Positions 3,117 to 28,043 of a stretch of 64,000 nucleotides of DNA are shown in pieces; the stretch's first letter is position 1, and the number at the start of each line of letters is the position of its first letter. Source of the stretch: an uncultured Methanosarcinales archaeon. GTDB taxonomy: Archaea > Nanobdellota > Nanobdellia > Woesearchaeales > 21-14-0-10-32-9. Position numbers and translations under genes: made by a program. The notes beneath the pieces were generated by a model, which worked only from the letters and a program-made list of their open reading frames with translations, was not told the origin of the DNA and searched no databases. The DNA is taken from the NCBI GenBank assembly GCA_964548665.1, contig CAZJQL010000001.1:5462-69461 (forward strand). The letters are read 5' to 3'.

Positions 3117-3174
3117 TCCTTAAAAAATTGGTTTATTGAAAAGATTAAATCTAAATTAAAAAATAAATAAAAAA

Positions 3175-4788
<1,614 letters not shown>

Positions 4789-9031: not shown

Positions 9032-9982
9032 ATGGCTGGATTTGAAACACCATCAATACTTTTATTCTTGATAACAATCCCTTTATTGTTCTACATTTAC
9101 AAGAAGATTATTGCCAAGAAAAAGAAAGATGCAATCACATTCAGCAACATTGGATTCATAAAATCCGCTCTTGGTGATAAGAAAAAATCAAAAAGAAATG
9201 ACTTGCTATTCTTCTTATGTCTTCTAATAATAACATTAATGATTATTGGTTTTGCAAATCCACACATCCCTCTTAAACAGACTAGAGAAGGTGTTAATGT
9301 GATTTTAGTTCTTGACGTCTCTGGTAGTATGCAGGCAACAGATTATCAGCCTACAAGGCTTGAAGCTATGAAAAAATCTGCAGAAATACTAATCAAAGAT
9401 CTTAAAGAAAAAGATCATGTGGGTATAGTGACTTTTGAGTCTGGAGCAACTACTGCAGCATATCTAAGCCCGTACAAAGATAAAGTTATTGAAAAACTTC
9501 GAAGCATTTCTCCGCATCAAGGACAGACAGCAATAGGCGATGGGCTTGCAATGGGTGTGGATATGGCGACAAGCATTCCGAATAAGAAAAAAGTCATAAT
9601 CCTGCTCAGTGATGGAGTAAACAATGCAGGAGTAATAAGCCCTCAAGAAGCGATTGCATTTGCAAAAACAAACAACATACAAGTTCATACCATTGGAATG
9701 GGTTCAGAGGGACAAGTAATATTAGGATATGATTGGTTTGGAAGACCTCAATACGCAGAATTCGATGCGGAAACACTCAAAACAATAGCTAAAGAGACTG
9801 GTGGAAAATATTTTCAATCAGTAAATGATAAAACACTTGAAAATATCTATAAAAACTTAAGCAAAGAGATAAAAAGAGAGAAAGAAGAAACAAATATCAA
9901 AGAATATTTCTTCTTAGCAGCACTGATAACATTCATAATCTATCTATACTTAAGATATGGTGATAAGAGGATAATACAATGA
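9032..9982 (+). CDS. von Willebrand factor A domain membrane protein (BatA-like)
   Basis: N-terminal TM helices; vWA MIDAS motif LVLDVSGSM; follows DUF58. Confidence 0.8.
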   Translation: MAGFETPSILLFLITIPLLFYIYKKIIAKKKKDAITFSNIGFIKSALGDKKKSKRNDLLFFLCLLIITLMIIGFANPHIPLKQTREGVNVILVLDVSGSMQATDYQPTRLEAMKKSAEILIKDLKEKDHVGIVTFESGATTAAYLSPYKDKVIEKLRSISPHQGQTAIGDGLAMGVDMATSIPNKKKVIILLSDGVNNAGVISPQEAIAFAKTNNIQVHTIGMGSEGQVILGYDWFGRPQYAEFDAETLKTIAKETGGKYFQSVNDKTLENIYKNLSKEIKREKEETNIKEYFFLAALITFIIYLYLRYGDKRIIQ

Positions 9983-11523
9983 AAAAAATAATCCTACTAC
10001 TAATGGGACTCCTTTTATTAATGCCACTCGTGCATGCTGAAGATATTACCTTATCATTAGACCAAAAAGAATACTATTTCAAAACAGGGGAAAATGCAAT
10101 CATAAACATTCACGCAGAAAACACATACAAGGAAACAATCAATGGAATGCTAAGCTACACAATCACCCAGTTAATAAATCAAGGGAATTTCCAGATGTCG
10201 AGTTCAAACACCAAATCTACCAATTTTCAGATAAAAGAAGGAAAAACAGATAATCAATTAAATTTTGGGACATCAGAAACACCTATATTATTGACAGTTG
10301 GACTCTCATTTCAGTACAATAAGGATGAATCAAGAGTGGTGCAATTAGAAGACATAAAAATACATTTTGTAAGCGAAGAATCACAAAAACAAAACACCCA
10401 AAAAACTGTTTCTAGCAGTTCACAAAAGACAAGCGCCACACAACAAAACGATCCATTTACACAACAAGAACAACGAATGCAACAAATGATAAATCAAATG
10501 TTTGGAGAAGAACCGCAACAACAGCAACAACAATCAGCAACACAGAAACTCCAAAATAACCAATTATCTCAGGACAGTTCAGCATTAAAACAGCAGATGC
10601 AAAAACAATTCCAAGAACAGCAGGCATTAAAAGAAGAATTCCAAAAACAACTATCACAAAATCAAGAATTCCAAAAAGAACATCAAGAACTATTAAGTCA
10701 AGGATATAACATCACAAGCGGAAGTCTAAACCCTATTGCAAATGACACAGGGACATTCGAATTAAATTACCAAAAAAACAACGGAGAACGAGCAACACTT
10801 AAAGGAGAAATGAACAATGGACAAATGCAACATCTTGAAAAAGATACTCCTCAAACAAGACAAGAACTATTAAACCAACTTCAACAAAATAAACAATTCC
10901 AAGAATACCAAAAGCAACTAGAACAGCAAGGATTCTCACAACAAAATACTGAATTCAAAACAACACAAAACCAAACAGATATTCAAGTAAATTATCTAAA
11001 CAAGAAAAATGAAACAGCACAAATAAGTGCTGAGATAATAAACAAAACAATAGAAAAAGTCGAATTAACAAAAAATATTGAAACTAAAAAGAAAAACTAT
11101 TGGTGGATTATCCCTGCATTAATTATTCTTGCAATATTAGTATATTTAGCTTATAAAAAGTTGAACAAAAAGAATAATAATACAAATCACCAAGCTATTC
11201 AAACTGAAGAAAAACCCTTTGATTACAAGAAAGAATCTAAGAAACTATTAGAAGAATCAAAGAAATCATTTGAGGTAAAAGAATACAAAGATGCATACGG
11301 AAAAGCAGGACAAGCACTAAGACTATATTTAAGCTATGAGAATAATCTAAAGAAAGAAATAACTAATGATGAAATAATCATTCACTTAAAAAAACAAAAA
11401 AAAGAATACCAAAAAATAAAAGAATGCTTCGATCTATGTTCGCTAGTAGAATTTGCAAAGTATGAAGCGAATAAAAAAGATTTTTATAAAATAATAACCG
11501 AGATAGAAAAAATAATTGAATGA
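9979..11523 (+). CDS. secreted Q-rich, coiled-coil membrane-anchored protein (BatD-like position in the Bat/MoxR operon)
   Basis: Signal peptide, poly-Q/QQ-rich low-complexity core, TM near residue 370, C-terminal helical/TPR-like tail. Confidence 0.45.
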   Translation: MKKIILLLMGLLLLMPLVHAEDITLSLDQKEYYFKTGENAIINIHAENTYKETINGMLSYTITQLINQGNFQMSSSNTKSTNFQIKEGKTDNQLNFGTSETPILLTVGLSFQYNKDESRVVQLEDIKIHFVSEESQKQNTQKTVSSSSQKTSATQQNDPFTQQEQRMQQMINQMFGEEPQQQQQQSATQKLQNNQLSQDSSALKQQMQKQFQEQQALKEEFQKQLSQNQEFQKEHQELLSQGYNITSGSLNPIANDTGTFELNYQKNNGERATLKGEMNNGQMQHLEKDTPQTRQELLNQLQQNKQFQEYQKQLEQQGFSQQNTEFKTTQNQTDIQVNYLNKKNETAQISAEIINKTIEKVELTKNIETKKKNYWWIIPALIILAILVYLAYKKLNKKNNNTNHQAIQTEEKPFDYKKESKKLLEESKKSFEVKEYKDAYGKAGQALRLYLSYENNLKKEITNDEIIIHLKKQKKEYQKIKECFDLCSLVEFAKYEANKKDFYKIITEIEKIIE

Positions 11524-12996: not shown

Positions 12997-13114
12997 TATT
13001 CACGAATTTAACCATTCCAATCGCTACGTTGTTCTACGAGGGTGTTTATATAGGTATTTGAGCATCCCTCGACGTGAACATAGGAGGTAAACCACAATGG
13101 CAAAGAAAGCAGAC
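12997..13114 (+). promoter_or_regulatory. promoter/leader module copy B: TATA box tttatata (13045-13052), perfect 6-bp inverted repeat cgaggg(13037-42)/ccctcg(13066-71), SD, MAKKAD
   Basis: Direct repeat of 2861-2978. Confidence 0.55.
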
Positions 13115-13345
13115 AAATCGTTTTACACGTTAGCACAAAAAGTGCTCCAGGAACAAAACAAACCAATGCATTACGCAGACATAACAAAGGAGATCTTAAA
13201 GATCAAGGAAACCAAAGGCAAGACGCCAGAGCGAACAGTAATGGCAGTAATACTAAGAGACAAGCACAATATCTTTACAAGTGTAGGCGAGGGTATCTTT
13301 GGATTAAGCTCGTTTCAAAGTAGCCCAAAAGCTACCAAAGCTTAG
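13097..13345 (+). CDS. HARE-HTH domain protein (RpoE-delta/restriction-associated wHTH)
   Basis: 82 aa; the pattern A..VL......PMHY.DI...IL......GKTPE.TV.AVILRD...F..VGEGIFGL matches the HARE-HTH fold. Confidence 0.6.
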   Translation: MAKKADKSFYTLAQKVLQEQNKPMHYADITKEILKIKETKGKTPERTVMAVILRDKHNIFTSVGEGIFGLSSFQSSPKATKA

Positions 13346-13635: not shown

Positions 13636-16553
13636 TCGTTTGCACCTTTAAGCATCGTTGTTATCTTAGTGGTCAATTCGACAGTCTTTTTAACGGTTGT
13701 CCCTGATTTTACGAAAACTTTCTGGAGCTCTTGCTTTAATTTCCGCTCATGATCTTCACTTTTCTTCCAATGAGGATATTTTTCGAAAATATTTTTCATA
13801 CTGTTGGCTTTTTCTTCAGCATCACTTAAGCCTTCATCTTTTAATAGCCAATAGACTGAGAAGACGTCAGTGGACATCTTCATTTTCTTTTGTTCTTTTT
13901 TAGCGTGGTTTATCTCGGTAACGAGTTCTTTTAATTCATCAAGTGTTTCTTCAGTATCTTTTTGTCTTTGTTTGTAAAGCATAGAGATTAGCTCTGCTTT
14001 TTGGCCTATTGATACAAGGTATGGATTACTGCTTGCGCCATGCTCGATAGATATTCCGATGCTTCTTAAGAGATTGAATATTTTCTCTGTATCGGAAGAT
14101 TTGTTCTCATCAAGCTTCTTTAAAGTGGTCTCGTTTATCTCGTAAATTTCCAGAGTGGACTTTATCTTTCCGCTGTGGGTGTGTTCTTGGACAAGCTTCG
14201 CTGTTTTTCTTGTGAATTCTTTGTCAACAGATATTCCTGGTTCGTATGCTTCTCTTAATATCTTGAACATTCTTGCTAAGGTGTCAAATTCTTCAATGTA
14301 TGGTCTTAGGAATGCGTCTGGTGATAATATCTCATAGATGTCTGACATCTCTTTGAAGAATTGATAGAAGTCTTGTCTTTTTGTTTCGTCTTTGAAATAA
14401 TCGAGTACTGCTTCAACTGCTTTATCTTTGGTTTTTCCTTTCAGCAGCTTAAGATAATCTTTTCTTGCAGTAGTTATGAGTTCTTCAAATCGTTTCTTTA
14501 AGACTTCAAGATCTTTGACTACTTCAGTCACATCTCCAGAATCAAATGCGAGGGCTTTCTCAAGCTTGTCGAAAATTCCGACGAAGTCAAGAACAAATCC
14601 TGAAGGCTTCTTTCTGCCCTCTTCATCCTCATATGGTCTGTTGACTCTTGCAATTGCCTGCAATAAAACGTGATCTCTCATAGGCTTATCAAGATACATA
14701 CAGTAAAGGATCGGAGCATCAAATCCAGTCAATAATTTCTCAGTAACAATTAATATCTTCGGCTGTTTGTTAGGGCTTCTGAATGCTTTTCTTATTCTCT
14801 TTTCTTTTTCCGTTGTGATATAATATTTCGCTAAGTTTTCCTGGTCGTTATGTGCTGGACTGTAAACAACTTCTGAATATTCTTTTGGAAGATATTTGTC
14901 GATTTCTTCTTTGTATAATGCACACGCCTCTCTATCTACCGCAACGATAAAAGCTTTGTAGCCCATTGGCTCTACATTATTCTTGAAATGGTCTACTATG
15001 AATTTAGTGACTTTCTTTACTCTCTGCTTATTCTTCAGCATATTTTTGAGAGTGACTGCTTTTTCTAGGACCTTGTTTAATGATTCTATGTCACTTATTC
15101 CTTCTGCTTCTGCGAGGTTTAGGAATTCTTTTTCAAGAATTTCTTTCTCAGGTCTTATCTCATTAGGAGCTAATGTATAGTGGAGTTTGACTGTTGTTCC
15201 GTCTTCTATTGATTCTGCAATTCCATATTTGTCAAGATATCCTTTTGGAGGATCATCTCTTCCAAAGACCACAAATGTGCCTTTTCCATGAGAAGTCTTG
15301 TCAATTGGCGTTCCTGTAAATCCGAGATATGTTGCATTAGGTAAAGCTCCCATCAAGTAATTTCCTAAGTCTCCACCTGTTGTCCTATGTGCTTCGTCTA
15401 CAAGGACAATTATGTTTTTTCTGGTATTGATGTTTGCAGGTAATCCTTCAAACTTGTGAATCATAGAAATGATTAATCCTCTTGCGTCTCTTTCCAATAG
15501 ATCTTTCAGATGCTTTTTTGTTTCAGCAACTTCGATATGCTCAATGCCGACTGCAGTAAGATTTCCAAATAGTTGTGTCTCTAACTCATTTCTGTCGACA
15601 AGCATAATTACAGTTGGATTCTCGAAGAGCGGGTTTGCAAGGATTCTCTGGGCTGCAACAATCATGGTGAATGTTTTTCCGCTTCCTTGAGTGTGCCAAA
15701 CCAATGCCCTATTTTTCTTTTTGCTTGAAGCTCTCTCCACAAGCTTTTCAACTGCTCGCATTTGATGAGGTCTTAAGACGACCTTTTGCAGTTCATCATC
15801 TTGCCTTGTAAATAGTATGAAATGCAATAATGTTTTTACAAGCCTTTCCTTATCAAAGAAAGTCTTGACCATCTCTTCATAGTTCTTTGCAAGAGTGTCG
15901 GTCTTCCAATTGAAGACAGATTTCATTGACAACGACCATGTCGATGAATATAAGAAATGAATAATGTTTGTTGCAGTGTAGACTTGAAATAAGGTCATCG
16001 CTTCAGGAGTCTCTTTATGATATCTTCTGACCTGGTCTAATGCTTCTGCAATGATGGAGTCCCTGTTTACTGATCTTCCAATAAATTTAGCGACTGATTT
16101 TGTTTCGACAAAAAGGATAGGGACTCCGTTAATCAAAAACGCTACATCGTAACGATTTGTGTTTGTGCCGTTTGTATATGAGAATTCATCAGTAACTTGG
16201 AAAATGTTTCTTTTCGGGTTCTCATCGACGATTATGACATTTCTTTCTCTCTTTTCATTTTGAACAAATACTGTTTTTAATCCTCTTAAGTATTCCCACG
16301 CTTGAAGATTTCCCTCAATTCTTGCAGGCAATCGCTCAATCTTTTTGATGAGCTCTTCAATCATTATAGAGTCAATAAAATCAGAATTTAGCTTTCCGAC
16401 TTGTTCAGTAAAAACTTCCTTGAATAAAAGCCCAGTCTTTCCACCCCTAAGCCTAATTGCATCCTCTGGCTTGACATATTCCCATCCAATTTCACACGCA
16501 TATTGGATAAGTGTATTTTGGACTGCAGCTCTTTCGTTTCCCAATTTATTCAT
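13632..16553 (-). CDS. hsdR: Type I restriction enzyme R subunit
   Basis: 973 aa; N-terminal nuclease region, SF2 helicase motifs TQGSGKT and DEAHRT, C-terminal helical domain. Confidence 0.9.
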   Translation of the reverse strand: MNKLGNERAAVQNTLIQYACEIGWEYVKPEDAIRLRGGKTGLLFKEVFTEQVGKLNSDFIDSIMIEELIKKIERLPARIEGNLQAWEYLRGLKTVFVQNEKRERNVIIVDENPKRNIFQVTDEFSYTNGTNTNRYDVAFLINGVPILFVETKSVAKFIGRSVNRDSIIAEALDQVRRYHKETPEAMTLFQVYTATNIIHFLYSSTWSLSMKSVFNWKTDTLAKNYEEMVKTFFDKERLVKTLLHFILFTRQDDELQKVVLRPHQMRAVEKLVERASSKKKNRALVWHTQGSGKTFTMIVAAQRILANPLFENPTVIMLVDRNELETQLFGNLTAVGIEHIEVAETKKHLKDLLERDARGLIISMIHKFEGLPANINTRKNIIVLVDEAHRTTGGDLGNYLMGALPNATYLGFTGTPIDKTSHGKGTFVVFGRDDPPKGYLDKYGIAESIEDGTTVKLHYTLAPNEIRPEKEILEKEFLNLAEAEGISDIESLNKVLEKAVTLKNMLKNKQRVKKVTKFIVDHFKNNVEPMGYKAFIVAVDREACALYKEEIDKYLPKEYSEVVYSPAHNDQENLAKYYITTEKEKRIRKAFRSPNKQPKILIVTEKLLTGFDAPILYCMYLDKPMRDHVLLQAIARVNRPYEDEEGRKKPSGFVLDFVGIFDKLEKALAFDSGDVTEVVKDLEVLKKRFEELITTARKDYLKLLKGKTKDKAVEAVLDYFKDETKRQDFYQFFKEMSDIYEILSPDAFLRPYIEEFDTLARMFKILREAYEPGISVDKEFTRKTAKLVQEHTHSGKIKSTLEIYEINETTLKKLDENKSSDTEKIFNLLRSIGISIEHGASSNPYLVSIGQKAELISMLYKQRQKDTEETLDELKELVTEINHAKKEQKKMKMSTDVFSVYWLLKDEGLSDAEEKANSMKNIFEKYPHWKKSEDHERKLKQELQKVFVKSGTTVKKTVELTTKITTMLKGANE

Positions 16554-17083
16554 TTCAAATCCCCTAATAATTTCTCCATCTCAAAAATGAAGTTTTTAGC
16601 TCTCTTCAAAGAAGTAATTGCTTTAGAATGCTTCTCGACAGCAGTTGTTTCATACTGAAGAATGCCTCTTTTATTCCTTTCCTGATCGAATTCCTCAATT
16701 AACGTATCTGCCTTGATTCCAGGAAGGGCTTCATTCTGCGCTTCTTCGTACTCTTCCAATAATCTCTTCTTAAGTTTATTTCTTACATGAACAATAAGCG
16801 CATCAGCTGTAACTTTGTGAGGTATCTTATCCCCTACTTTGTAGCCTATCTTGAATAAGACTGCATTGGCCATATAAAACATCGAGTAATATGATGTGAC
16901 AATAATCCACAAATCTGATTTCTTGTTCTTCGCTAGAAATTCAGCAATCTCAATGCTATCATTGGAATTATTCAATAAGACTGTGATAATTTCTTCCCTG
17001 AATTGATGCTTTTTTAGCATACCTGATTGCAAGTATTCTCGGACATTAGCTTCTGCTTCCTTTATTCTTTTATCATCAAGCAT
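16550..17083 (-). CDS. HEPN-domain protein (putative toxin/RNase) paired with MNT
   Basis: 177 aa; all-alpha HEPN-like core (YYSMFYMANAVLFKIGYKVGDKIPH...). 8-bp overlap with the upstream MNT and 4-bp overlap with hsdR. Confidence 0.55.
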   Translation of the reverse strand: MLDDKRIKEAEANVREYLQSGMLKKHQFREEIITVLLNNSNDSIEIAEFLAKNKKSDLWIIVTSYYSMFYMANAVLFKIGYKVGDKIPHKVTADALIVHVRNKLKKRLLEEYEEAQNEALPGIKADTLIEEFDQERNKRGILQYETTAVEKHSKAITSLKRAKNFIFEMEKLLGDLK

Positions 17084-17642
17084 TGTTCATCAACCTATAA
17101 TAATCCTCTACTCCAAAAAGCACAATATTATGTTTAACTGCTTCAGACACGACGGTAAATTCCTTTGATTTTAGCATTGATTCAAAATTCTCATAAGTAA
17201 TATGAGTTAAGTGAATATTAAGAGGAAGCAAATTAACCTGAGTCTCAATCTTTTTAGAATTACTCGATATAAGCAATAAATCAATATCTGAACCTTTGGT
17301 CTGTTGACCCTTAGAATAAGAACCAAATAATAGCAGAATAAACTGCTCATTAACCTTAGCTAACCGATTATATAATACAAGGAAATTCTTGTCTTTTAAG
17401 AGCTCTTGAAGCCTCGTAAATTCGACTTGAAATACAGAATCATTGAACTTATGATTAAAAGAGCAAATAGTGGTGTTCCCCTGTTTTTTAAGACTAACCA
17501 CGCCTTCTTTCGCAAGATCTTTAAGACTCGTATAAGCGGATTTATAATTGATTTGCCTCTGAATTCCAATCTGCCTAATGCTAAATACTTTCTCCTGATT
17601 CTCGATAAGCAACTTCAATATATTCAAACGTTCATTATCCAT
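17076..17642 (-). CDS. minimal nucleotidyltransferase (MNT) with N-terminal wHTH
   Basis: LLLFGSYSKGQQTKGSDIDLLLI is the pol-beta-type NTase GS...DxD motif; N-terminal wHTH. Confidence 0.7.
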   Translation of the reverse strand: MDNERLNILKLLIENQEKVFSIRQIGIQRQINYKSAYTSLKDLAKEGVVSLKKQGNTTICSFNHKFNDSVFQVEFTRLQELLKDKNFLVLYNRLAKVNEQFILLLFGSYSKGQQTKGSDIDLLLISSNSKKIETQVNLLPLNIHLTHITYENFESMLKSKEFTVVSEAVKHNIVLFGVEDYYRLMNNA

Positions 17643-17682
17643 TGTAACCCATACAACTATGGTTTAAACCCATATATAAACT

Positions 17683-18219
17683 TTACTGTTTACTTTCGTG
17701 ATGTTCTTCCTTTTTCTTCCGCTTAAGCTTCTTAACAATCCAATCAATCACATTCTTCTTAATATCGAAATTAAAGACAGAAGCACTGATTAAATCTCCA
17801 ATAATGATAAAGATAAGAAATATATTGACGATAAAAACAACTTGATAATTGAAATAAAGCTTATTGTAAATAGCTACATAATTATTGTTCACAGTATCAA
17901 ATTTCTGATTGAGAATAGCAACATCATACCTTGAAATGTTAATCTCCTGCTTAAGATCTTCAATATCTTTTTTAGTTACGTTCTCAGTTATGAGACGAGT
18001 ATATTCAGCCCTGCACTGCTGTACATTCTGATCTAATTGACTATTTTGTTGCTTAAGGCCACTAATTTCAGAATCCTTCTGACCAACTTGAGTAATATAA
18101 GGAGCACACTGAGAATCAGTAGCTATCTTAGACAAAGAAGTAAAGACAGGAATCATAGCTAAGATGAACATCAAAGCCAAAAAGCCACCGACAATAACAG
18201 CAACAGGTCCTTCAGCCAT
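17683..18219 (-). CDS. membrane protein: TM - coiled coil - TM, basic tail; unknown function, inside the R-M operon
   Basis: 178 aa; N-terminal TM (AVIVGGFLALMFILAMIPVF), about 90-aa Q/N-rich coiled coil, second TM, KR-rich C-terminus; 1-bp spacing to hsdS. Confidence 0.45.
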   Translation of the reverse strand: MAEGPVAVIVGGFLALMFILAMIPVFTSLSKIATDSQCAPYITQVGQKDSEISGLKQQNSQLDQNVQQCRAEYTRLITENVTKKDIEDLKQEINISRYDVAILNQKFDTVNNNYVAIYNKLYFNYQVVFIVNIFLIFIIIGDLISASVFNFDIKKNVIDWIVKKLKRKKKEEHHESKQ

Positions 18220-18220
18220 C

Positions 18221-19516
18221 TTAAACCACCAAATCCTTCACTCTGACTTTAGCAGTCATAAGATCACGAAGCATAGAATTAAAGAACTCCTCAAGAGAAG
18301 CTTTCTTACGTTCCTCTGCTATGATCTTATCATCTAAAGCAGATAGAATATCTGATATTTGAATTTGAATATTTTTTTGTGGAACACCAATTTCAATATT
18401 ATCAATCAAATCTTTATTCAATCCACTTCTGTCTTCATCTCCTGTAATATTTCTAATTTTATCATAAATATTAGACAAGGCATAATGTAAATACATATAA
18501 TCTACTGATTCATTTGGGATAATGCAAACAACAGATTGATTAGATGTGCAAGGTATCTCCAGTGGTGCTGTTGTTCCTCTTGTTTTTCCTCTGCCAGCTA
18601 ATGCAATAACCACTGATTTAGGAGGTAACCATTTGGCATTTGAATTTTCCAATCCTTTTTTTGAAATAAAAGTATTCATTGATGCAATCTTTCTGCCTTG
18701 AACTTCTCCTGATTTCATCCAGGGGATCTCGGCAGGTTCCCAATACTCTTTTATTTCAGTTTTGGGAGTGCCACCTGCTATTAATTTGGAAAAATTCTTG
18801 ATTTTAAGAATTTTCCATTCGGCAGGAATTTTACCGATATCTGTATCTCGAAGCGTTACAGATTCAGCTTCTTCAGGAGTGGCCATTCCATAAGTGAACA
18901 AATGCTTCATCATGGATTTCTTCAATTCAGACAGTGAACTAATCACAGAATCCGTTTTCTCTTTTGATTCAAGTATGGCTAACAATACTGACGCTATTTT
19001 CTTCTGCTCGTCAATTTGAGGCAATATTGTAAGAAAGTTCTCAACAATTCCTTTGTTAATATTTTTCTGTGTACTCTGAATATTATGCATTGCTAACTGA
19101 GGAGCTAAATATTTCAATACAAAAGCACCAAACTCTACATTTAATTTTTCGTTTGGAATTATAGCGAGAATTGCCTGATTTGTTGCTACAGGAATTTTAT
19201 TTATTGCAGTCTCTCCAATTGTCGCATACATACTTAACAATAATGAATTTGGCGGAACTATCCAAGCACTTGATTCGTCTAATCCCTTTTTTGTGATAGT
19301 TTCTTTTGTTTTATACAAATAAATTCCGCAAGAGGTCATATCCTCTATAAGAACAAAAGGAATATCTCCATTAAAGTATTCCTTATTGCCTCGTTTAGGT
19401 GTTCCACCTGACCGCATCTTAATGGCTAAATCCTTTATTCTAATAAGATTCCAGCTTTCAGGTATCTCTCCCATTTCTGTTTGTTTTGTTCTTTCAAGGA
19501 CAGTTATATTTTTCAT
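18221..19516 (-). CDS. hsdS: Type I R-M specificity subunit
   Basis: 431 aa; two TRDs separated and followed by conserved coiled-coil repeats (LP..DEQKKIA; AEERKK...LL). Confidence 0.85.
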   Translation of the reverse strand: MKNITVLERTKQTEMGEIPESWNLIRIKDLAIKMRSGGTPKRGNKEYFNGDIPFVLIEDMTSCGIYLYKTKETITKKGLDESSAWIVPPNSLLLSMYATIGETAINKIPVATNQAILAIIPNEKLNVEFGAFVLKYLAPQLAMHNIQSTQKNINKGIVENFLTILPQIDEQKKIASVLLAILESKEKTDSVISSLSELKKSMMKHLFTYGMATPEEAESVTLRDTDIGKIPAEWKILKIKNFSKLIAGGTPKTEIKEYWEPAEIPWMKSGEVQGRKIASMNTFISKKGLENSNAKWLPPKSVVIALAGRGKTRGTTAPLEIPCTSNQSVVCIIPNESVDYMYLHYALSNIYDKIRNITGDEDRSGLNKDLIDNIEIGVPQKNIQIQISDILSALDDKIIAEERKKASLEEFFNSMLRDLMTAKVRVKDLVV

Positions 19517-21267
19517 TTTGATTCCTCTAATAAGCTGATGGGTTTCTTTTGATATTTTTCTGCTTTCTTCAAGAATAGTTTTGCTTTGGAAGGCTCGTGC
19601 AATGGTTTAATTGCTGCAGCTTTTATTCTCCATGCATCGCTGTTCTTCTCATTAAATCTGATCACTGCGTCGGCATCTTCTATTGCTTTATTCCATTGAT
19701 GCGTATCCAGGAAAGCTCTTGCTCTGTCCAATAAGAATTCTTCTTTTCTCCAGAGTCTTAATGCCTTATCAAAGTAATTCAATGCTTCTTTTGGTTTCTT
19801 TTTAGCTAATAGCACAACTCCTTTTTTATTTAGTACATAAGCATTTTTTGGAAAGAAGGTGTAGGCCAAATCAATAATTTCTTCTGCTGTTTGTATATTA
19901 CCAGAGTTTAAGAAAACAACAGTCTTATTTGACCAACCTAATGAGAAATTCTTGTCTTTTTCTATTGTTTTCTCAAAACACTCCAGAGCTAAATTAAGAT
20001 ATTTTTCTGTATTTTGATATTTTGAATTCTTCTCGTAAATAACTCCCTTGTTGTTTATTGAATTGACATTATCTGGCTCTTTTTTCAGCAGTTCTTCATT
20101 TAGTTTAAAGGCGTTTTTGAGGTCGATAAGTTCAATGTAAACATCTACTTTTAGGCTCTGTAGAACTGCTGATTTATTTACGTGCTCTTCTTTCTCATCA
20201 AGGAATTTCAAAGCTTCTTCTGATCTATCTAATGCTTTTAGTATCTCTGTCTTTGTTTGAATAGCGACAATAAAGATAGGATCAACTTCTAAAGCCTTTT
20301 CTACATAAGGCAGTGCTTCTTCAGGTTCACCTTGCCTATTTAGATTATGAGCCTTATTGTTTAATGCAAATTTATGTTTGGCATCAATTTCAAGAACAGC
20401 ATCATAGCAGACGGTCGACTCGTCAACCTTATCTATTCTTTCAAGAATAAATCCTTTGTTCAATAGTGCTTCTGTATTTTTAGGTGTTATCTCAAGTGAT
20501 TTATCCAAAAACATTAATGCATCGTCTTCTTTTTGTAATGCGAAGAAGAACATGCTCATTTTGGAGTAAACTAAAGCCTTGAGATTTATCTCAGTATCTT
20601 TCATATTGATTAATGCATTCTTGAGCTCTTCAGCAACTTCATGAGGATTATTCAGATTAATAGTTTTTGTAGTATTGAATTGGAATTGAATACCAAATCT
20701 TTTTCCTAAATCAGTAGACTGTTGAATTGCTGTTTCTGGTTTCTTTATATCGATTAATGGCGGAACTTCCTCGTCAGGAAAATACGCTTTGCATATGTCT
20801 GGAATCTCAAAAAGAAGATCTAAGAACTTTGTTCCTGTCCAATCGTTTATTTCGCACCTGTTCTTTTTATTCCAATTATCCATATCATCTTTGCAGTCAG
20901 GGGTTGAATCGGAATTCGATAGTATAAAGAATCTTTTTATTCCTTGATCTTGGGCTTTTTGAACTTCTGTAGAAAATTGTTTAAAATTAACTCCTGCTTT
21001 TTGTCTCTTGCATTGAAACCAGCATTTCTCACGTTTTTCTTCTTTGGCAATTTTTACAATAAACTCGGCTTCTAAGTCTCTGCCACCATCTCCTCCTTTT
21101 CCTCGAGTAATTGGATTAATAAAGTTATTTCTCTTGATGATATCATAGCAAAGATTCTGGAAATCGTCAGGAGATAATTCATTGAGAAGTTTCTTCCATT
21201 CTTCTCTTTTTTTAATCTCTTTTTGCTTCATATTAACATAACCTCTCCACCCAGAATTTAGCTTCAC
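19513..21267 (-). CDS. Mrr_cat-type PD-(D/E)xK nuclease domain fused to a C-terminal TPR-repeat array
   Basis: N-terminal roughly 170 aa: RGKGGDGGRDLEAE...WFQCKRQ matches the Mrr catalytic core. The rest is about 400 aa of TPR-like repeats. Confidence 0.6.
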   Translation of the reverse strand: MKLNSGWRGYVNMKQKEIKKREEWKKLLNELSPDDFQNLCYDIIKRNNFINPITRGKGGDGGRDLEAEFIVKIAKEEKREKCWFQCKRQKAGVNFKQFSTEVQKAQDQGIKRFFILSNSDSTPDCKDDMDNWNKKNRCEINDWTGTKFLDLLFEIPDICKAYFPDEEVPPLIDIKKPETAIQQSTDLGKRFGIQFQFNTTKTINLNNPHEVAEELKNALINMKDTEINLKALVYSKMSMFFFALQKEDDALMFLDKSLEITPKNTEALLNKGFILERIDKVDESTVCYDAVLEIDAKHKFALNNKAHNLNRQGEPEEALPYVEKALEVDPIFIVAIQTKTEILKALDRSEEALKFLDEKEEHVNKSAVLQSLKVDVYIELIDLKNAFKLNEELLKKEPDNVNSINNKGVIYEKNSKYQNTEKYLNLALECFEKTIEKDKNFSLGWSNKTVVFLNSGNIQTAEEIIDLAYTFFPKNAYVLNKKGVVLLAKKKPKEALNYFDKALRLWRKEEFLLDRARAFLDTHQWNKAIEDADAVIRFNEKNSDAWRIKAAAIKPLHEPSKAKLFLKKAEKYQKKPISLLEESK

Positions 21268-22159
21268 TTATTAGTTGTTTTGAGATTTCTTCAGAATTAT
21301 CAAAATAAGACGATAAAGCTGTTGTAATATTGCTTAACATGGAATCAGTTGCCAAATCTTTTAATGAAGGATTCTTTAAGGTATCTTCTATTTTTTGTTG
21401 ATTATCATGTATTTTTTTAAGATCTTTATCATTCATAAATCGTGATGCCAGAAATCCTATGTCTCCTGCAATGATAGGATCGACAATAGAAATCTGGCTT
21501 AAGGCTAATGCTTCTGAAATAGTCTGTATTGAGAATATATCCTCTATTTCCAGAACTTCTCCTATCGTTTTGTAGTTAGTTTCATAATCATAATCCTTTT
21601 TCCAATAGATATTCTTTAGGTCAATAACTGCAAGAAGACTTATTATGCATTTAGCGTTTTGATATTTCGAATATATCTCTTTTTCAAACCACTCCTCAAG
21701 ATCTTTTCGTGTGCTTAGATTTTTCGGCACTTTAGATGGCGGAATTATGCTTAATGCTCCACCAAGATTCTTAGATCCATAATTTTTCTCTATTTCTGTC
21801 TTTATGAATTTGAAATTCTTGCCATCAACTTTCTGATTGGCATATTGAAAAATGATTATAGGAAGAGGTTTTGAATATTTTTTAACTAAATTCTCTTTAG
21901 ATATTCCTTTTCTTTTTAAGGAAGTTATGACATAGCTATAATCTTTTTCAGTCTTCTCTTTGTCACTCAATGCTTCCTCTATTTTTTTATTCTTCGTCTC
22001 TACATCTTGTTTAAGATTCCTATTTTCTTCAATTAATAAGTCAATAAAACTCTGGTTTTGTATTTCTTGTTTTTTCTTTTTACTAAAAATTGAGATAATC
22101 TTATCTAGGACTTTACTTACAAACCACCCTATTATTGATTCTAACCACATCCTATTCAA
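21233..22159 (-). CDS. hypothetical protein: N-terminal TM helix, coiled coil, unknown C-terminal domain; between hsdM and the Mrr-TPR gene
   Basis: 308 aa; overlaps hsdM by 8 bp and the downstream gene by 35 bp (operonic). Confidence 0.4.
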   Translation of the reverse strand: MNRMWLESIIGWFVSKVLDKIISIFSKKKKQEIQNQSFIDLLIEENRNLKQDVETKNKKIEEALSDKEKTEKDYSYVITSLKRKGISKENLVKKYSKPLPIIIFQYANQKVDGKNFKFIKTEIEKNYGSKNLGGALSIIPPSKVPKNLSTRKDLEEWFEKEIYSKYQNAKCIISLLAVIDLKNIYWKKDYDYETNYKTIGEVLEIEDIFSIQTISEALALSQISIVDPIIAGDIGFLASRFMNDKDLKKIHDNQQKIEDTLKNPSLKDLATDSMLSNITTALSSYFDNSEEISKQLISEAKFWVERLC

Positions 22160-23669
22160 ACCCCATCTGCTCTAGGATTTTCTTGAGTTTTTCGTCAGCT
22201 TGTTTTCTTTCTTCTTCTGCTTCTCTTAACTGAACATATGCATCTTCAAGATCAAGTGTTTCATCAGTGCCATTCTGTGCAACGTATCGTGATGGAGAAA
22301 GGTTGTAGTCGTTCTTTGTTATTTCTTCAGCAGTCACTATTTTGCTTACTCCTTCCTCTTCTTTCCATTTCAAGTAGATTGATGCAATCTTGTCTACTGC
22401 TGAATCTGGCATGAAATTCTTTGGCCTTCCTTTCTCAAATAGCTTAGAGCCATTAATCAATAGAACTTTATTCTTGTGTTTCTTATCTTTATTTATGATA
22501 AGAATTATTCCTGGAGCAGTTGTATTATAGAATAGGTTTTCAGGCAATAATAGAACGGCTTCAATTATATCTGCTTCTATGAACTTCTTTCTTATGTCTC
22601 TTTCTCTGTTTGATCCTGCATTTCCTGAGCCACGAGATACTGCCCCTGTGTCTAAGACTACTGCTATTCTTCCTTTATTCTTTAGGGAAGCGAGCATATG
22701 TTGGACCCAACCCCAGTCTGCACTTGACGTTGTTGGATATCCGTAAATGAATCTTCCATATGCATCATTTTCGTAAGTGCTTTGAGGAAAACTGTCTTGA
22801 TTCCACATTGGATTAGCAACGACAATATCGAATTTACGCAAGTGACTGTCTGCTGTTGTGAATGCTGGCCTATTCATTGTGTCGCCAAGAGCTATATCTG
22901 CTTCCATATCGTGAATAAATGCATTCATTTTAGCCATAGCATAAGTTGTATGTAGGCTTTCTTGACCAAAGAATTTCAATGGTTTTACTTTTGTGTTGTC
23001 TCCATGTTTCTCTCTGAATCTCAAGAAACTCTTAATCAATAGTCCGCCTGATCCTAAGCAGGGATCGTATATTTCCTCTCCTTCTTTTGGGTCGAGAATG
23101 TGTGCCATAAGTATTCCTACTTCTTTTGGCGTATAGAATTCTCCTGCACTTTGCCCTGATCCTTCTGCGAATTTTCTTAAGAGGTACTCGTATGCTCTTC
23201 CTATTAAGTCTGGCTCAACATCTTTCTGACCAAGCCTATGTTTGTTTAATGTATCAATTAATGCTTTGATTTTATCGTCTGTGATTATTCTTTGGCCTGC
23301 AGCTGTTGCGTTGAAATCAACTATGTCTATGACTCCTTGCAGTTTAGGGTTTTCTCTTGCTATTGCTCTGACTGCGTCAGTAAGGTATTCTCCGAGTCTT
23401 GTGCTTTGTTTTATTATGTTTGACCATCTTGCATTTTCAGGAAGATAGAATCTTACGAGTGTGTGATCTTCTTCAACGAATTCTTTTGCAGTCTTTATGT
23501 CTTCATATTCTTCTGATAATTTTTGTATTTCATCGTCGAATACATCGCCAAGTCTTTTCAAGAATATAAGTGGTAAGATATAGTCTTTGTATTTTGGTGC
23601 GTCTATTTCCCCTCTGATTTTACACGCTGCTTCCCAGAGCCATCCTTCGAGTGTTTTGATATCTAGCAT
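22152..23669 (-). CDS. hsdM: Type I R-M N6-adenine DNA methyltransferase subunit
   Basis: 505 aa; HsdM N-terminal domain, SAM-binding motif I, catalytic NPMW (motif IV). Confidence 0.9.
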   Translation of the reverse strand: MLDIKTLEGWLWEAACKIRGEIDAPKYKDYILPLIFLKRLGDVFDDEIQKLSEEYEDIKTAKEFVEEDHTLVRFYLPENARWSNIIKQSTRLGEYLTDAVRAIARENPKLQGVIDIVDFNATAAGQRIITDDKIKALIDTLNKHRLGQKDVEPDLIGRAYEYLLRKFAEGSGQSAGEFYTPKEVGILMAHILDPKEGEEIYDPCLGSGGLLIKSFLRFREKHGDNTKVKPLKFFGQESLHTTYAMAKMNAFIHDMEADIALGDTMNRPAFTTADSHLRKFDIVVANPMWNQDSFPQSTYENDAYGRFIYGYPTTSSADWGWVQHMLASLKNKGRIAVVLDTGAVSRGSGNAGSNRERDIRKKFIEADIIEAVLLLPENLFYNTTAPGIILIINKDKKHKNKVLLINGSKLFEKGRPKNFMPDSAVDKIASIYLKWKEEEGVSKIVTAEEITKNDYNLSPSRYVAQNGTDETLDLEDAYVQLREAEEERKQADEKLKKILEQMGFE

Positions 23670-23968: not shown

Positions 23969-24460
23969 TTATTCTCTTTTAGGTCCTTTCATTATTGCAT
24001 TACACCCATCACAAACTGGGGCTTGCTTAATTGCTACACTGACTGGAATCAGTTCTCTTTTATTACACCTAACGCATAGGCGATTAATAAGCGATGGATC
24101 TGGAGATCTGCTTTTAGGGAATACCTCATTCATTAATTCAAACGCTTTATCTTTGAAGAATGCATTAAAGCTTGTATGTATGGTTTTTTGTGTTTTATAA
24201 TTGCTCATTGAATCGGTTAGGTTCAAACACATTGGCTTTTTCTCGGCATAGAGTTCTGGCCAGTTCTCACGAAATTTGACATCATCTTCAGCATAAAAGA
24301 CACGAATTAAATCGCTCTCTTTCAATTTTATCGCAGTAGTTTCATCAGTTTTTGATAAATCAATGATTTGCAAGACTGCAATCTCTTTGAATATATTCAA
24401 AACATATCTTATGTGTTCTTCGTTCTTCCCGCCAATAATGGTTATTTTCTCGCTTAACAT
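23969..24460 (-). CDS. hypothetical protein with C-terminal CxxC...CxxC zinc ribbon
   Basis: 163 aa; C-terminal CVRCN...CDGCN; 1-bp gap to the ligase gene. Confidence 0.4.
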   Translation of the reverse strand: MLSEKITIIGGKNEEHIRYVLNIFKEIAVLQIIDLSKTDETTAIKLKESDLIRVFYAEDDVKFRENWPELYAEKKPMCLNLTDSMSNYKTQKTIHTSFNAFFKDKAFELMNEVFPKSRSPDPSLINRLCVRCNKRELIPVSVAIKQAPVCDGCNAIMKGPKRE

Positions 24461-24461
24461 T

Positions 24462-25259
24462 TTATTTGTCCTCCCTCACTCTTATTATTCTCGGAAATCT
24501 TAGTTTCTCAAAATCTCCTTTATTGAAAGATAGCTCAATTGTTGAGCCTATAGAATAATCTGCAGAGCTCATCACAGTCCCTGTTTTCTCGTTTTCTGAA
24601 ATATACTTGTAAACCCATGCTTTGTTGTCTTTTGTCTGTTTTTTCTCTATGATCTTGACGTCAATTGTTCGAATGGGTTTCATTTTAATCCAATTGAAGC
24701 GAGAATTTGGCTTGTAGCTTTCAAGATTCTTTATTACAATACCTTCAAATCCCGATTCTATAAGTTTCTTGTAAAGTCTTTCAACGTCGACGATTGTATT
24801 TGTAAATGTGTTTGGAACAATGTTTAAGCTATCATTCTCCTGGACAAAGAAATTGATGTGCTGTCTTCTTGTTACATAATCGGATTCAATCAAGCTGTTG
24901 CTATCAACTTCTAAGATGTCAAAAACAAAGAAGACAAATCTTTCATCGGAAAACAATTCTTTGGCAATTGCACGATGAGAACCTACAACTTTTCCTTTCT
25001 TTAATACGGCCATTTCACCATCAAGAATAATTCTTTCTGGAAGTATCCCCTTTCTAAGATCTTCTGCAATGGACTTATATCTGCTTGAATAATCCTTGCC
25101 ATTACGTGTAATGAGCTTTATTTCTGTTCCATTCTTTTCAAGAAGAATCCTTACCCCATCTATCTTAGGCTCTAAAGCAACAGCATCATTATTGTAGATA
25201 AAAGTTTCCACCTCTCCCTCTCCAACAAGCTGTGGCTTAAAGCTCGTCACATTTATCAT
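24462..25259 (-). CDS. minimal ATP-dependent DNA ligase (NTase + compact OB, 265 aa)
   Basis: Motif I EPKIDGVR, III LDGEMAV, IV EGIVIK, V WIKMKP, VI RFPRIIRVREDK; no DNA-binding N-terminal domain. Confidence 0.8.
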   Translation of the reverse strand: MINVTSFKPQLVGEGEVETFIYNNDAVALEPKIDGVRILLEKNGTEIKLITRNGKDYSSRYKSIAEDLRKGILPERIILDGEMAVLKKGKVVGSHRAIAKELFSDERFVFFVFDILEVDSNSLIESDYVTRRQHINFFVQENDSLNIVPNTFTNTIVDVERLYKKLIESGFEGIVIKNLESYKPNSRFNWIKMKPIRTIDVKIIEKKQTKDNKAWVYKYISENEKTGTVMSSADYSIGSTIELSFNKGDFEKLRFPRIIRVREDK

Positions 25260-25596
25260 CCTTCCTTACCTCCGACAAATCTGCATTTAATCTCTTGATG
25301 ACCCAACATCCTTGACCTTTAGAACTATGAGAACTCTTGAAGTATACCGCGAGAAGAGGAACAATATTGAACTCAATAGCCTTCTCAATTATTCCATGAA
25401 GGCCAGTCATTCTATAAACTACTTCTCGAGTACTTTTGACTTCCACCAAGAAAACCTCTTTTTTAGAGAATAATACTGCATCGCAGACAGAATATTGCCT
25501 TCTACCAGAAGCTGCAACTCTTTCTGTATGATATCCTTTATCTTTCATCATGTTGCAGAAGTCCCGTTCATATTGGAGATGACTTTTCAATCTCAT
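25237..25596 (-). CDS. hjc: Holliday junction resolvase Hjc (archaeal PD-(D/E)xK)
   Basis: 119 aa; GYHTERVAASG...CDAVLF...LVEVKST matches the Hjc E-D-E-K catalytic arrangement. Confidence 0.75.
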   Translation of the reverse strand: MRLKSHLQYERDFCNMMKDKGYHTERVAASGRRQYSVCDAVLFSKKEVFLVEVKSTREVVYRMTGLHGIIEKAIEFNIVPLLAVYFKSSHSSKGQGCWVIKRLNADLSEVRKDDKCDEL

Positions 25597-27115
25597 CAGA
25601 GATCACCTCCAATTCTTGCTCTGCAATCTCGCCAATCAGTTTAGCAATAGAAGATTTTCCGAGAACAACATCTTCGTGGCCTTTGTATTTTTCAAAGAGT
25701 TCTGTAAATCTTCTGAGTCTATCAAGCTCTAAATCCTTGTCAAACTTTATTCCTGCCTTATTGCAGAATGCTCTAAGAATATCAACTTTCTTCATCCATA
25801 AACAAAGAACACCTGCATGTTTTGCCCATTCGAAAAGCTGTTGTCCATTTGGATGATTCATAATCAAAACAGGCATTAATCTATGAGTTCCTGGAATAGG
25901 TTTCATGTCAAGAGATCTTCCATGAGACAAGCATCCAATCATAGAAGTGATGTATTTCTTTCCTGCACTTCCGAGATATTTTCCTTTCTTATCCCTCTTG
26001 ATTGAAACAGCAAATCCAAATATAGGAACTTTCAGCAATTGATCATAACAGAAAATCAAATAGTCTATTGGCTCAGAATCAAACCTCCAAACATCAACAA
26101 GCCTCTGCTCTTTCTCATTAGTATATCTCTTAATGTCGTTTGGATTAAACCAAGAAGGAATCCTCTTTGGAAAGTCCTTATTGAGTCGAATCTGCAGATT
26201 ATATCTCGAGATGAGATACATTACAAAGTAGAATATGGCTTGTTCTTCGAATCCATTTCCGAGAGTGGTCACATCCAATATACTTTTTACAACTTCTTCC
26301 TTATGCAGTTTAGGAGCCTGTTCGAGAACATAACTTTCAGGCATTGTTCTGTTGAAATAGTATCTTCTCTGCTTGAATGATACAACCTTAATCCAGCCGA
26401 CGCTGATAAACCTTACATCAAACCAACTTTTTATATCGCCATTAGTTACTTTGAATCGGTCCTTCATCATGTCAATATTATAGATATCATTGGACTGAGA
26501 AATGAGCAGGAAAGCACTTCTTACCTCTTTAGGCATAAGCTTCAAGATCTTATTATAGATGGCCAAATCATCTTTTCCGTAGACGTAGCCTGGTTTTCTG
26601 CCATGAATCATAGCATTGCCTGGCATCATAAAAGGACTTCTTTTGATGAGCTGCAACCTGATAAGATCATTCAGGCAGAAGTAAACATGATCATAATTCC
26701 CGTATTCCTTATAATACTCTTTTTCCCTCAATAAATAGAGAACTTCAGCAGTCGTATAGCCTTCTTCTGAAGACATCAACGCATCAAAGATTTCTTTTTT
26801 AATGCCTTGCAAGAACTCTTTCTCATCAGTTTTGCTATTTAGCTTCTGAATCTTCTGGTTGATATCATCCTGGCTCATGCCGTAAACAAAGACAGAACTG
26901 CACTTCCTGGCACTGCTCTGAGCCTTTTTCCTGCTCTTGATGATAAGATTGCCCTGCATGATCTGACGCAGGTAAGAAGAGATGTGGCAGTACCTGATGC
27001 CTCTGTCTTTGAAGGCGTCAAAAATCTCTTTTGTAGTAACTGCCCGTCTTTCCGTTATGAACTTATAAATCTGGAAAGTGATACTATTTTTGTCAAAAGT
27101 GATTTTATCGGCCAA
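25568..27115 (-). CDS. hypothetical 515-aa protein with two N-terminal winged-helix-like domains; candidate replication/initiator-type protein of unknown family
   Basis: No Walker A/B seen. 29-bp overlap with hjc (operonic). Confidence 0.35.
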   Translation of the reverse strand: MADKITFDKNSITFQIYKFITERRAVTTKEIFDAFKDRGIRYCHISSYLRQIMQGNLIIKSRKKAQSSARKCSSVFVYGMSQDDINQKIQKLNSKTDEKEFLQGIKKEIFDALMSSEEGYTTAEVLYLLREKEYYKEYGNYDHVYFCLNDLIRLQLIKRSPFMMPGNAMIHGRKPGYVYGKDDLAIYNKILKLMPKEVRSAFLLISQSNDIYNIDMMKDRFKVTNGDIKSWFDVRFISVGWIKVVSFKQRRYYFNRTMPESYVLEQAPKLHKEEVVKSILDVTTLGNGFEEQAIFYFVMYLISRYNLQIRLNKDFPKRIPSWFNPNDIKRYTNEKEQRLVDVWRFDSEPIDYLIFCYDQLLKVPIFGFAVSIKRDKKGKYLGSAGKKYITSMIGCLSHGRSLDMKPIPGTHRLMPVLIMNHPNGQQLFEWAKHAGVLCLWMKKVDILRAFCNKAGIKFDKDLELDRLRRFTELFEKYKGHEDVVLGKSSIAKLIGEIAEQELEVISDEIEKSSPI

Positions 27116-27244
27116 CGTCTATACCTCCAGAATTAGTAAGGAATAACCAATATAAAGCCCTAATTGGTAAGAAATATAGTAAGCTTAGTAAGAAAAGAAT
27201 AGAAAAAGAATTATAACAGGAAAACGCCCTAAATACCGAAGTAT

Positions 27245-27982
27245 TTAATCGTTATCGACTCTTGGTGCTAATATGAATTGTAGGCTTAACTTATCTTTTT
27301 CTAGGTATTCCAGAATTAAAGGATAGTCGTTGCTGAATTTTATTGTTGCTTTTGTTGCTAATTTTGATCCTTGCATCATTTTTTTTAGGTATTCTATTGA
27401 GTATTTGGATTTTTGTGTTGCTTCTGTTTCTATTTTCACTTGTTCATCTGGTTTTATTATTACTTCTGCTCTGTTTAGATCGCCTATCGAGGATATTATT
27501 AAAGATTCTTTGTCTGATTGTAGTATTACGCTTTCACCTACTATGTCCATGTCTTCTATTGCTTCGTTTAGAGTTGAGGACAATAGTTCTATTTTTGCTT
27601 TGGTTGTTAGTTGGGGTATTCTTTGTTGTCTTTCCTCTAAGTCTATTAGTGGAAGATAGAATGTTCTTGTTGTTTTTTCTTTCATAACTATTTTTAATTT
27701 ATTTTCTGTTTTTTCTATTGTGAGTTTGTCTGTAGGTTTTGTTCTTCTTAGTACTTGTTTTAGGTTATCTAGGTTTATTGCTATTGTTGTGTCTTCTTTT
27801 AATTCATATTCTGAGAACATTGTTGCTGGCATTTTGAATATTACCATTGCAACATTTGCAGGATCCATTGCGATTATTTCTATTTGATCTGGCGTTATTT
27901 TGAATTTTGTTTCTTTTACTAATTCGGAGATTATTGCTATGCTTTCTTTTAGAAATTTTGGTTCTGATAGGGTTAATTTCAT
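27245..27982 (-). CDS. pcn: PCNA sliding clamp
   Basis: 245 aa, two-domain PCNA pattern; N-terminal MKLTLSEPKFLKESIAIISELVKETKFKITPDQIEI. Confidence 0.8.
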   Translation of the reverse strand: MKLTLSEPKFLKESIAIISELVKETKFKITPDQIEIIAMDPANVAMVIFKMPATMFSEYELKEDTTIAINLDNLKQVLRRTKPTDKLTIEKTENKLKIVMKEKTTRTFYLPLIDLEERQQRIPQLTTKAKIELLSSTLNEAIEDMDIVGESVILQSDKESLIISSIGDLNRAEVIIKPDEQVKIETEATQKSKYSIEYLKKMMQGSKLATKATIKFSNDYPLILEYLEKDKLSLQFILAPRVDND

Positions 27983-28043
27983 TTATATCCTCCCTTTTTC
28001 TCTTGAAAAGGAACTTTATTTATATAGTTTTCTTTGATTTCGT

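Follow-up and report, generated by a model that had tools for sequence, protein, structure and literature searches.

We analysed a 64,000-nt stretch of DNA (hereafter the window; contig CAZJQL010000001.1, positions 5,462 to 69,461) from an uncultured archaeon of the Woesearchaeales, which carries a type I restriction-modification (R-M) operon with three small genes between hsdS and hsdR, encoding a two-transmembrane (TM) protein (referred to here as MEM), a minimal nucleotidyltransferase (MNT) and a HEPN-domain protein. We conclude that these genes probably represent two independent passenger modules of the operon, i.e., an MNT/HEPN cassette resembling PADLOC PDC-M05 and the type VII toxin-antitoxin (TA) systems, and a membrane protein accessory to R-M. 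Established for the cassette are the two-gene architecture, an intact nucleotidyltransferase (NTase) site, a predicted HEPN fold, purifying selection, and a TATA box and operator that travel with the pair; MEM belongs with type I R-M operons, as a true accessory gene of theirs, and not with the cassette. An earlier model-made annotation based on the sequence (the first-pass annotation) had delimited the three open reading frames (ORFs), all of which our ORF check found as described, on the minus strand, and the sequence agrees as well with its 8-nt overlap of the MNT and HEPN genes (ATGCTTGA) and with the single base between the hsdS stop codon and the MEM start codon. Comparison of nonsynonymous and synonymous differences per site (pN and pS) with homologues indicates that none of the three is a chance ORF. 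A reading of the three genes as one unit is contradicted by their distribution.

More than 860 homologues of HEPN and more than 320 of MNT were found, and all available source names are DPANN lineages. Judged by the taxonomy of the closest homologues of the pair, the window most likely comes from a DPANN, Woesearchaeota-like host; this placement is provisional, as the two genes could have been acquired horizontally. When species-representative genomes were scanned, relatives of the pair were confirmed at 182 places, and 79 loci were kept. MNT lies directly 5' of HEPN in 78 of these 79 DPANN loci, mostly with a short overlap, so that the toxin-antitoxin-like geometry read initially from the window is upheld. 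Neither hsdR nor hsdS occurs within 8 kb of the pair in any of the 79 loci, an hsdM-like methyltransferase is found within this distance in only five, no other gene family recurs in more than seven, and among 139 immediate neighbours no Pfam family appears more than three times. The pair is therefore a free-standing two-gene unit (a 1.14-kb cassette) and its R-M setting in the window is the exception. Two copies of the pair are present in three metagenome-assembled genomes (MAGs); in the window, both the pair and MEM occur once only.

The cassette also carries its own upstream region. In the window a TATA box (TTTATATA) lies 5' of MNT at 17680-17673, together with half-sites in the arrangement TATGG-N-CCATA-N-TATGG (17674-17649, minus strand). 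About 45 nt 5' of the MNT start are conserved in all listed loci (L012-L090), across DPANN phyla and nearly nucleotide for nucleotide, with the consensus GAAA..TTTATATATGG-N5-AACCATAATAnTATGGTTnAAn-ATG. Beyond approximately -45 and past the HEPN stop codon the sequence is unrelated between loci, L014 excepted, which gives the cassette sharp borders from about -45 to the HEPN stop codon. A conserved block with unrelated flanks means that the cassette brings its own promoter, and the half-sites are a candidate operator for the N-terminal domain of MNT. A strict form of the operator pattern was found 5' of MNT in 36 of 73 loci; the 1.7 Mb of locus sequence contain it only 39 times in all, and the window a single time. 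At the other border, the HEPN stop codon of the window overlaps the hsdR start codon as ATGA (minus strand). The HEPN gene frequently ends in AAATGA or a similar ATGA (L013, L015, L027, L028, L033; window 16550-16553), and the overlapping ATG serves as the start of the downstream gene in the window and, as it appears, at several further loci. An overlap of this kind would let the cassette sit in-line with translational coupling intact.

Could HEPN, MNT and MEM nevertheless form one three-gene system, with MEM as effector or anchor of the TA pair? The genes are adjacent and co-oriented in the window, and one further locus preserves part of the arrangement: in the Woesearchaeota contig L014, positions 2877-4038 are 80% identical to window positions 17742-16581 over 1162 nt, the homology beginning some 60 nt before the MEM gene ends and running through the cassette, while unrelated sequence beside a glutamine-synthetase-like ORF has taken the place of the remaining MEM gene. 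This looks like a remnant of a MEM-cassette junction, which would therefore predate the split of the L014 and window genomes. Against the three-gene system, MEM is found without the pair in every other locus examined, the pair is found without an intact MEM gene in 79 of 79 genome loci, and a separate promoter for the pair lies in the 40-nt spacer that follows MEM. The one-system reading is rejected on distribution and is effectively refuted; we give it almost no credence. The simplest history would start from an ancestral hsdS-MEM-hsdR arrangement, as seen in L001, into which the cassette would have been inserted, and the native AAATGA end of the cassette would now provide hsdR with its overlapping start context.

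MNT matches the Polbeta/NTP_transf_2 families at about 1e-7, and the NTase motif GS-x10-DxD (FGSYSKGQQTKGSDIDL; DID here) is intact, is present in 119 of 120 homologues, and aligns with that of MntA 5yep, the best PDB sequence match of MNT. Against PADLOC PDC-M05A (PDLC04368) MNT scores 7.6e-14 with residues 4-180 on profile positions 14-193 of 201, the N-terminal domain included, and HEPN matches PDC-M05B (PDLC04374) at 7.7e-8; the window thus shows the PDC-M05 architecture of adjacent genes matching M05A (NTase) and M05B (HEPN). Several close homologues of HEPN carry a precomputed PF05168 match. The AlphaFold model of HEPN (pLDDT 80, pTM 0.78) has as its top PDB matches in Foldseek the HEPN proteins AF0298 (2hsb), ST0689 (1wol), TT1696 (1ufb), sacsin and HepT, with target-normalised TM-scores of 0.67-0.79. 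An extra N-terminal winged helix-turn-helix (wHTH) domain had been assigned to MNT in the first-pass annotation; for the N-terminal ~75 residues there are sub-threshold matches, mostly to winged-helix/HTH families (HVO_A0114 at 0.0039, WH_eIF2D, ArsR HTH_5, TrmB), none of them significant, and a winged-helix domain is probable. Indirect support comes from the conserved palindromic operator, since it adjoins the gene. Strong purifying selection acts on both genes: against homologues pN is 0.07-0.18 with synonymous sites saturated, and the single estimable pair of homologues gives dN/dS of about 0.05. The scenario of a decayed pseudogene remnant, which had been named at the outset as part of what would undo the assignment, is therefore ruled out.

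Compared with known systems, the pair shares with PDC-M05 the two-gene architecture, a full-length M05A match and an M05B match; the DPANN subfamily of the window is divergent, its M05B match being confined to residues 115-172 (the C-terminal ~58). PDC-M05, an NTase plus a HEPN protein, is enriched in archaea, which account for 59% of detected instances (PMC12988326), and the PDC set that includes it goes back to genes found inside BREX, DISARM and type I R-M systems (bioRxiv 10.1101/2024.01.29.577857). With the type VII TA systems HepT/MntA (Shewanella SO_3166/SO_3165 and the HEPN-MNT modules of Aphanizomenon and Legionella) the pair shares the position of MNT 5' of HEPN with an overlap and the predicted HEPN fold (6m6u, 8xeh and 8xdj are among the Foldseek matches). 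Beside its Arg motif the window HEPN has a conserved Tyr, where the AMPylated region of HepT would also lie (mechanism after PMC7641770; prediction by Anantharaman et al., PMC3710099). Unlike HepT, the window protein has ERxKRxxxQY plus His89 in place of Rx4-6H and is about 45 residues longer, and unlike MntA, the window MNT has the additional wHTH-like domain and an NCBIfam MntA score far under the cut-off. The best structural matches of HEPN belong to the HEPN-T class (PF05168; 2hsb, 1wol, 1ufb; Anantharaman et al. 2013), from which it differs in having Q or Y, not D, where the His was lost, and in its Pfam score under the gathering threshold.

The HEPN motif reads E135-R136-x-K138-R139-x3-Q143-Y144, and among 21 aligned members E135, R136, K138, R139 and Y144 are invariant in the motif helix, H89 is the sole invariant His, and the invariant charged residues include K90 and D94 as well. 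ERx[KR]RxxxQY is present in 118 of the 120 best HEPN matches, in place of the Rx4-6H motif that the first-pass annotation had in mind; neither Arg is followed by a conserved His at a distance of 4-6 residues. Because of this absence the canonical signature gives no support to an RNase activity of HEPN, which is possible, and any catalysis would need R136/R139 together with H89 or another residue; RNase toxicity may be proposed on these terms. Y144 is a likely nucleotidylylation target and is placed here only as a candidate counterpart of HepT Y104, as the region in which it lies is modelled with pLDDT <50.

In the scheme that we propose for the pair, a mobile, self-promoted wHTH-MNT/HEPN cassette would have been inserted between MEM and hsdR. 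The wHTH domain would repress its own promoter at the TATGG/CCATA sites, MNT would nucleotidylylate HEPN at Tyr144 beside the Arg-rich motif and so hold it inactive, as in the HepT/MntA scheme, and released HEPN would harm RNA or translation. Several observations count against this scheme. In addition to the missing Rx4-6H signature, the motif region (residues 122-146) is the lone poorly modelled part of HEPN, at pLDDT <50, and a profile built from the HEPN alignment found among PDB sequences only 9xbd/9xbc at about 1e-3, too weak to fix the equivalence of the motif. The scores for the established families are low: MNT reaches 27.1 bits against the NCBIfam MntA_antitoxin cut-off of 60, and HEPN 18.8 bits against the Pfam PF05168 gathering threshold of 22. 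PDC-M05 itself is experimentally unvalidated, its antiviral activity not having been demonstrated (PMC12988326), the MNT/HEPN cassette was not found in a scan of viral contigs, and unusual conservation and a housekeeping setting have been noted for an MNT-HEPN fusion protein of DPANN archaea (PMC6393860).

Some of these points would fit a different explanation, in which the pair is a conserved two-subunit nucleotidyltransferase of DPANN archaea, with an inert HEPN as substrate-binding or regulatory subunit and an R-M location that is incidental. The lack of a His at the Rx4-6H position in 118 of 120 HEPN members, the unusually high conservation (51-89% HEPN identity across Woese-, Pace-, Nano-, Aenigm- and Parvarchaeota MAGs, and the low pN) and the absence of the pair from the viral contigs scanned all speak for it, as do two precedents, the DPANN-specific fusion just mentioned (Makarova et al. 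2019) and the exaptation of HEPN as an NTase substrate-binding domain (Anantharaman et al. 2013, PMC3710099). It fits less well with contexts that vary to the point that no neighbour family is shared by more than seven of 79 loci, with the three MAGs that hold two copies, and with a compact promoter-operator that moves with the pair, as for autoregulated TA modules. The invariance of E135, R136, K138, R139, H89, K90 and D94 suggests an active site rather than a passive domain, and the pair matches the embedding-derived PDC-M05 and sits in an R-M operon here. We regard the two-subunit enzyme as doubtful, though a serious competitor, and retain the TA-like cassette as our interpretation of the pair.

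MEM is a different kind of gene. Two hydrophobic segments, at residues ~5-30 (TM1) and ~122-150 (TM2), enclose a loop (about 95 aa, among them 11 Q and 10 N) and are followed by a 22-residue tail with 7 K and 1 R. The succession of TM segment, coiled coil, TM segment and KR-rich tail proposed in the first-pass annotation is thus correct for the two hydrophobic segments, the Q/N-rich loop and the K-rich tail; in place of a single long coil the AlphaFold model (pLDDT 60, low confidence) gives the loop as a helical hairpin (H39-79 and H83-149, with a turn at 80-82). A word-indexed search of 5.8 billion proteins gave five homologues, and an exhaustive HMM profile search of 1.84 billion representatives gave a family of 62, nearly all of 160-190 aa and matched end to end. 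Among 45 members both TM segments are present in 44, the loop measures 83-111 aa, and K/R make up 26% of the tail; the median net charges are -2 for the loop and +5 for the tail. The residues conserved best form the motif Y73-x2-L76-x3-N-[IV]-T82-K83-x-D85 at the predicted tip of the hairpin (L76 and D85 in all 45 members, T82 in 44, K83 and Y73 in 43), and Cys38, shortly after TM1, is found in 37. By the positive-inside rule the charge distribution predicts an N-in/C-in topology, with the hairpin outside and the basic tail in the cytoplasm. Searches of Pfam, NCBIfam, PADLOC and PHROGs with MEM gave nothing significant, only coiled-coil noise. With pN of about 0.3 and pS of 0.7-0.8, and dN/dS of about 0.18 for L001 versus L002, MEM is under purifying selection.

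The genomic context ties MEM to R-M. Of 14 informative distinct loci, 12 have the gene inside a type I R-M operon, so that the neighbourhood analysis bears out the R-M link suggested by the window. The gene stands directly between hsdS and hsdR in the window, L001, L002, L003, L005 and L091; in L001, where MEM is 50% identical, the order is hsdM-hsdS-MEM-hsdR-YgjP with overlapping coding sequences and without HEPN/MNT. L008 and L100 have hsdM...hsdS, MEM, hsdR and YgjP plus other embedded genes, with a small ORF on one side of MEM, whereas MEM is located 5' of hsdR in L004, after hsdM in L010/L011 and L094, and in the order hsdR (EcoEI_R_C type)-136aa-MEM-hsdM in L092. The MEM-bearing operons thus contain at least two HsdR types and at least three positions of MEM. 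The start and stop codons of MEM overlap or almost touch those of the hsd genes, and MEM identity falls with hsdR/hsdM identity (50% vs 70-73%, 34% vs 31-40%, 30% vs 30-32%). No constant partner other than hsd genes was seen, the 135/136-aa, 243/246-aa and 160-aa neighbours being mutually unrelated, and the family has no recurrent neighbourhood outside R-M. Other genes are embedded in these operons as well: DUF3800 proteins, 44% identical to each other, in L008 (5781-6512) and L094 (2495-3238), PRiA4_ORF3 and an SLFN_AlbA_2-HATPase-wHTH protein in L008, PIN_12 and AAA_15/AAA_21 in L010, and DUF6414 in L100.

That MEM is embedded almost exclusively in such operons, with its coding sequence tightly coupled to theirs, speaks for a function that depends on the R-M complex, as PrrC depends on EcoprrI. 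PrrC/EcoprrI (an anticodon nuclease embedded in a type Ic R-M locus) follows the same genetic logic of an accessory gene that hardly occurs outside type I R-M operons; MEM often lies between hsdS and hsdR. The proteins themselves have no sequence or domain kinship, PrrC being a cytoplasmic ATPase-nuclease and MEM a two-TM hairpin without enzymatic domain. MEM as a PrrC/RloC anticodon nuclease was accordingly rejected, since an ABC-type ATPase and a C-terminal HEPN would be needed and there are no domain matches beyond coiled-coil noise. A holin, with which MEM shares two TM segments and a basic tail, was rejected too, on the 83-111-aa loop between the TM segments, the lack of a PHROGs holin match, the absence of MEM from all viral contigs scanned and the lack of any endolysin neighbour seen. 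Kiwa KwaA/KwaB, a membrane sensor plus a DNA-acting partner, offers a purely conceptual analogy, in that a membrane component is genetically coupled to DNA-targeting defence (PMC11785009); it has no homology to MEM, KwaA is reported to form tetramers bound to KwaB dimers, and a sensing function of MEM is only a proposal.

A coupling of restriction to the membrane or envelope is the role that we favour for MEM, at low confidence, because only the short basic tail is predicted to be cytoplasmic and the conserved hairpin to be outside. MEM might couple the R-M complex to the membrane as a tether or a sensor where DNA enters, or it might be a PrrC-like guard whose output acts on the membrane. Spelled out as a dedicated membrane part of some archaeal type I R-M systems, in which the hairpin would sense or contact the envelope where foreign DNA enters and the tail would recruit or gate Hsd, or in which MEM permeabilises the membrane once R-M is disabled (a membrane-acting analogue of PrrC), the proposal is speculative and we hold it to be unlikely. 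Several points count against the R-M reading of MEM as a whole. Two lineages, L007/L009 and L095/L096, are found outside R-M operons; the residues conserved best are predicted to be extracellular, an awkward location for touching the cytoplasmic Hsd subunits directly; and the topology was predicted only from hydropathy and the positive-inside rule, next to a structure model that is poor. PHROGs searches with the 45 members returned coiled-coil noise (tape-measure, spanin and SbcC families), and Foldseek with the low-confidence model returned generic helical hairpins (MacA, EmrA, YscO, HP0958) that were left uninterpreted.

Some of the same facts would suit an envelope or housekeeping protein, e.g., a cell-surface coiled coil, that hitch-hikes in R-M operons with no functional tie to restriction; the two outlying lineages, the conserved residues in the predicted extracellular hairpin and the lack of a match to any defence model favour such a hitch-hiker. 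The presence of MEM in R-M operons in 12 of 14 informative loci, with at least two HsdR types and at least three positions, points instead to repeated retention or recruitment over one frozen accident, its coding sequence is tightly coupled to hsdS and hsdR, and no recurrent neighbourhood without R-M was found. We consider the hitch-hiker improbable and keep membrane or envelope coupling as the favoured role of MEM.

The operon is encoded throughout on the minus strand in the order hsdM, 308-aa protein, Mrr-TPR protein, hsdS, MEM, MNT, HEPN, hsdR and YgjP; the coordinates are listed in Table 1. No match to the 308-aa or the Mrr-TPR protein was found anywhere in L001, whose hsdM and hsdS adjoin. 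The YgjP-like gene is kept 3' of hsdR in L001, L008 and L100, and the L001 form is likewise 97 aa long. In the window it is abutted by a convergent gene for an 82-aa HARE-HTH protein (13097-13345, plus strand).

Table 1. Features of the type I R-M operon and its embedded genes in the window (coordinates are those of the window)
Feature	Position	Strand	Remarks
hsdM	22152..23669	-	type I methyltransferase; first gene of the operon
308-aa protein, no family match	21233-22159	-	between hsdM and hsdS
Mrr_cat nuclease-TPR protein, 584 aa	19513-21267	-	weak PADLOC PDC-M58A match, 8.5e-9
hsdS, specificity subunit of type I R-M	18221..19516	-	Methylase_S 1.5e-46
MEM, two-TM membrane protein, 178 aa	17683..18219	-	unannotated family
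Candidate promoter and operator of the cassette	17643..17682	-	TATA box and TATGG/CCATA half-sites
MNT, minimal nucleotidyltransferase, 188 aa	17076..17642	-	PADLOC PDC-M05A-like; probable wHTH N-terminus, ~75 aa
HEPN-domain protein, 177 aa	16550..17083	-	PF05168/UPF0332-like; PADLOC PDC-M05B-like
hsdR, type I restriction subunit, 973 aa	13632..16553	-	TIGR00348 1e-142
YgjP-like metallopeptidase fragment, 97 aa	13342..13635	-	immediately 3' of hsdR

The region 5' of the operon (23969-30830, minus strand) encodes a 163-aa protein of unknown function, a small ATP-dependent DNA ligase (265 aa), an Hjc-like resolvase, a 515-aa unknown protein, PCNA and a 928-aa unknown protein. Genes for Hjc and an integrase flank the R-M operon in L001 too, and the R-M region may lie in or beside an integrated element. 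No tRNAs and no Rfam families were found within the window. The 514-aa protein encoded at 9979-11523 (plus strand) is unrelated to the finding; its N-terminus is signal-like, and it has a long low-complexity region rich in Q as well as a TM segment at the C-terminus.

With regard to novelty, which the first-pass annotation had claimed for both elements, the pair is a member of a catalogued candidate class, PDC-M05, and its nesting in R-M has already been described, the clustering of PF05168-type HEPN genes with R-M operons having been noted in 2013 (PMC3710099). The claim survives for MEM, for which no prior description or family model was found and which is apparently an undescribed family tied to type I R-M operons, the modestly novel part of this work. 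Type I R-M operons now serve as "bait" for defence genes (guilt-by-embedding), and more than half of the embedded genes are without an assigned role. The window provides a clean natural case of a PDC-M05-type cassette inside an R-M operon, with a portable promoter-operator as regulatory element, and next to it a rare family, MEM, that is nearly confined to the type I R-M operons of small archaea. R-M and CRISPR systems are reported to be under-represented in DPANN archaea (PMC12988326). If it is true that MEM links restriction to the membrane, the family would be relevant to the encounter of R-M enzymes with incoming DNA, which is poorly understood, especially in DPANN.

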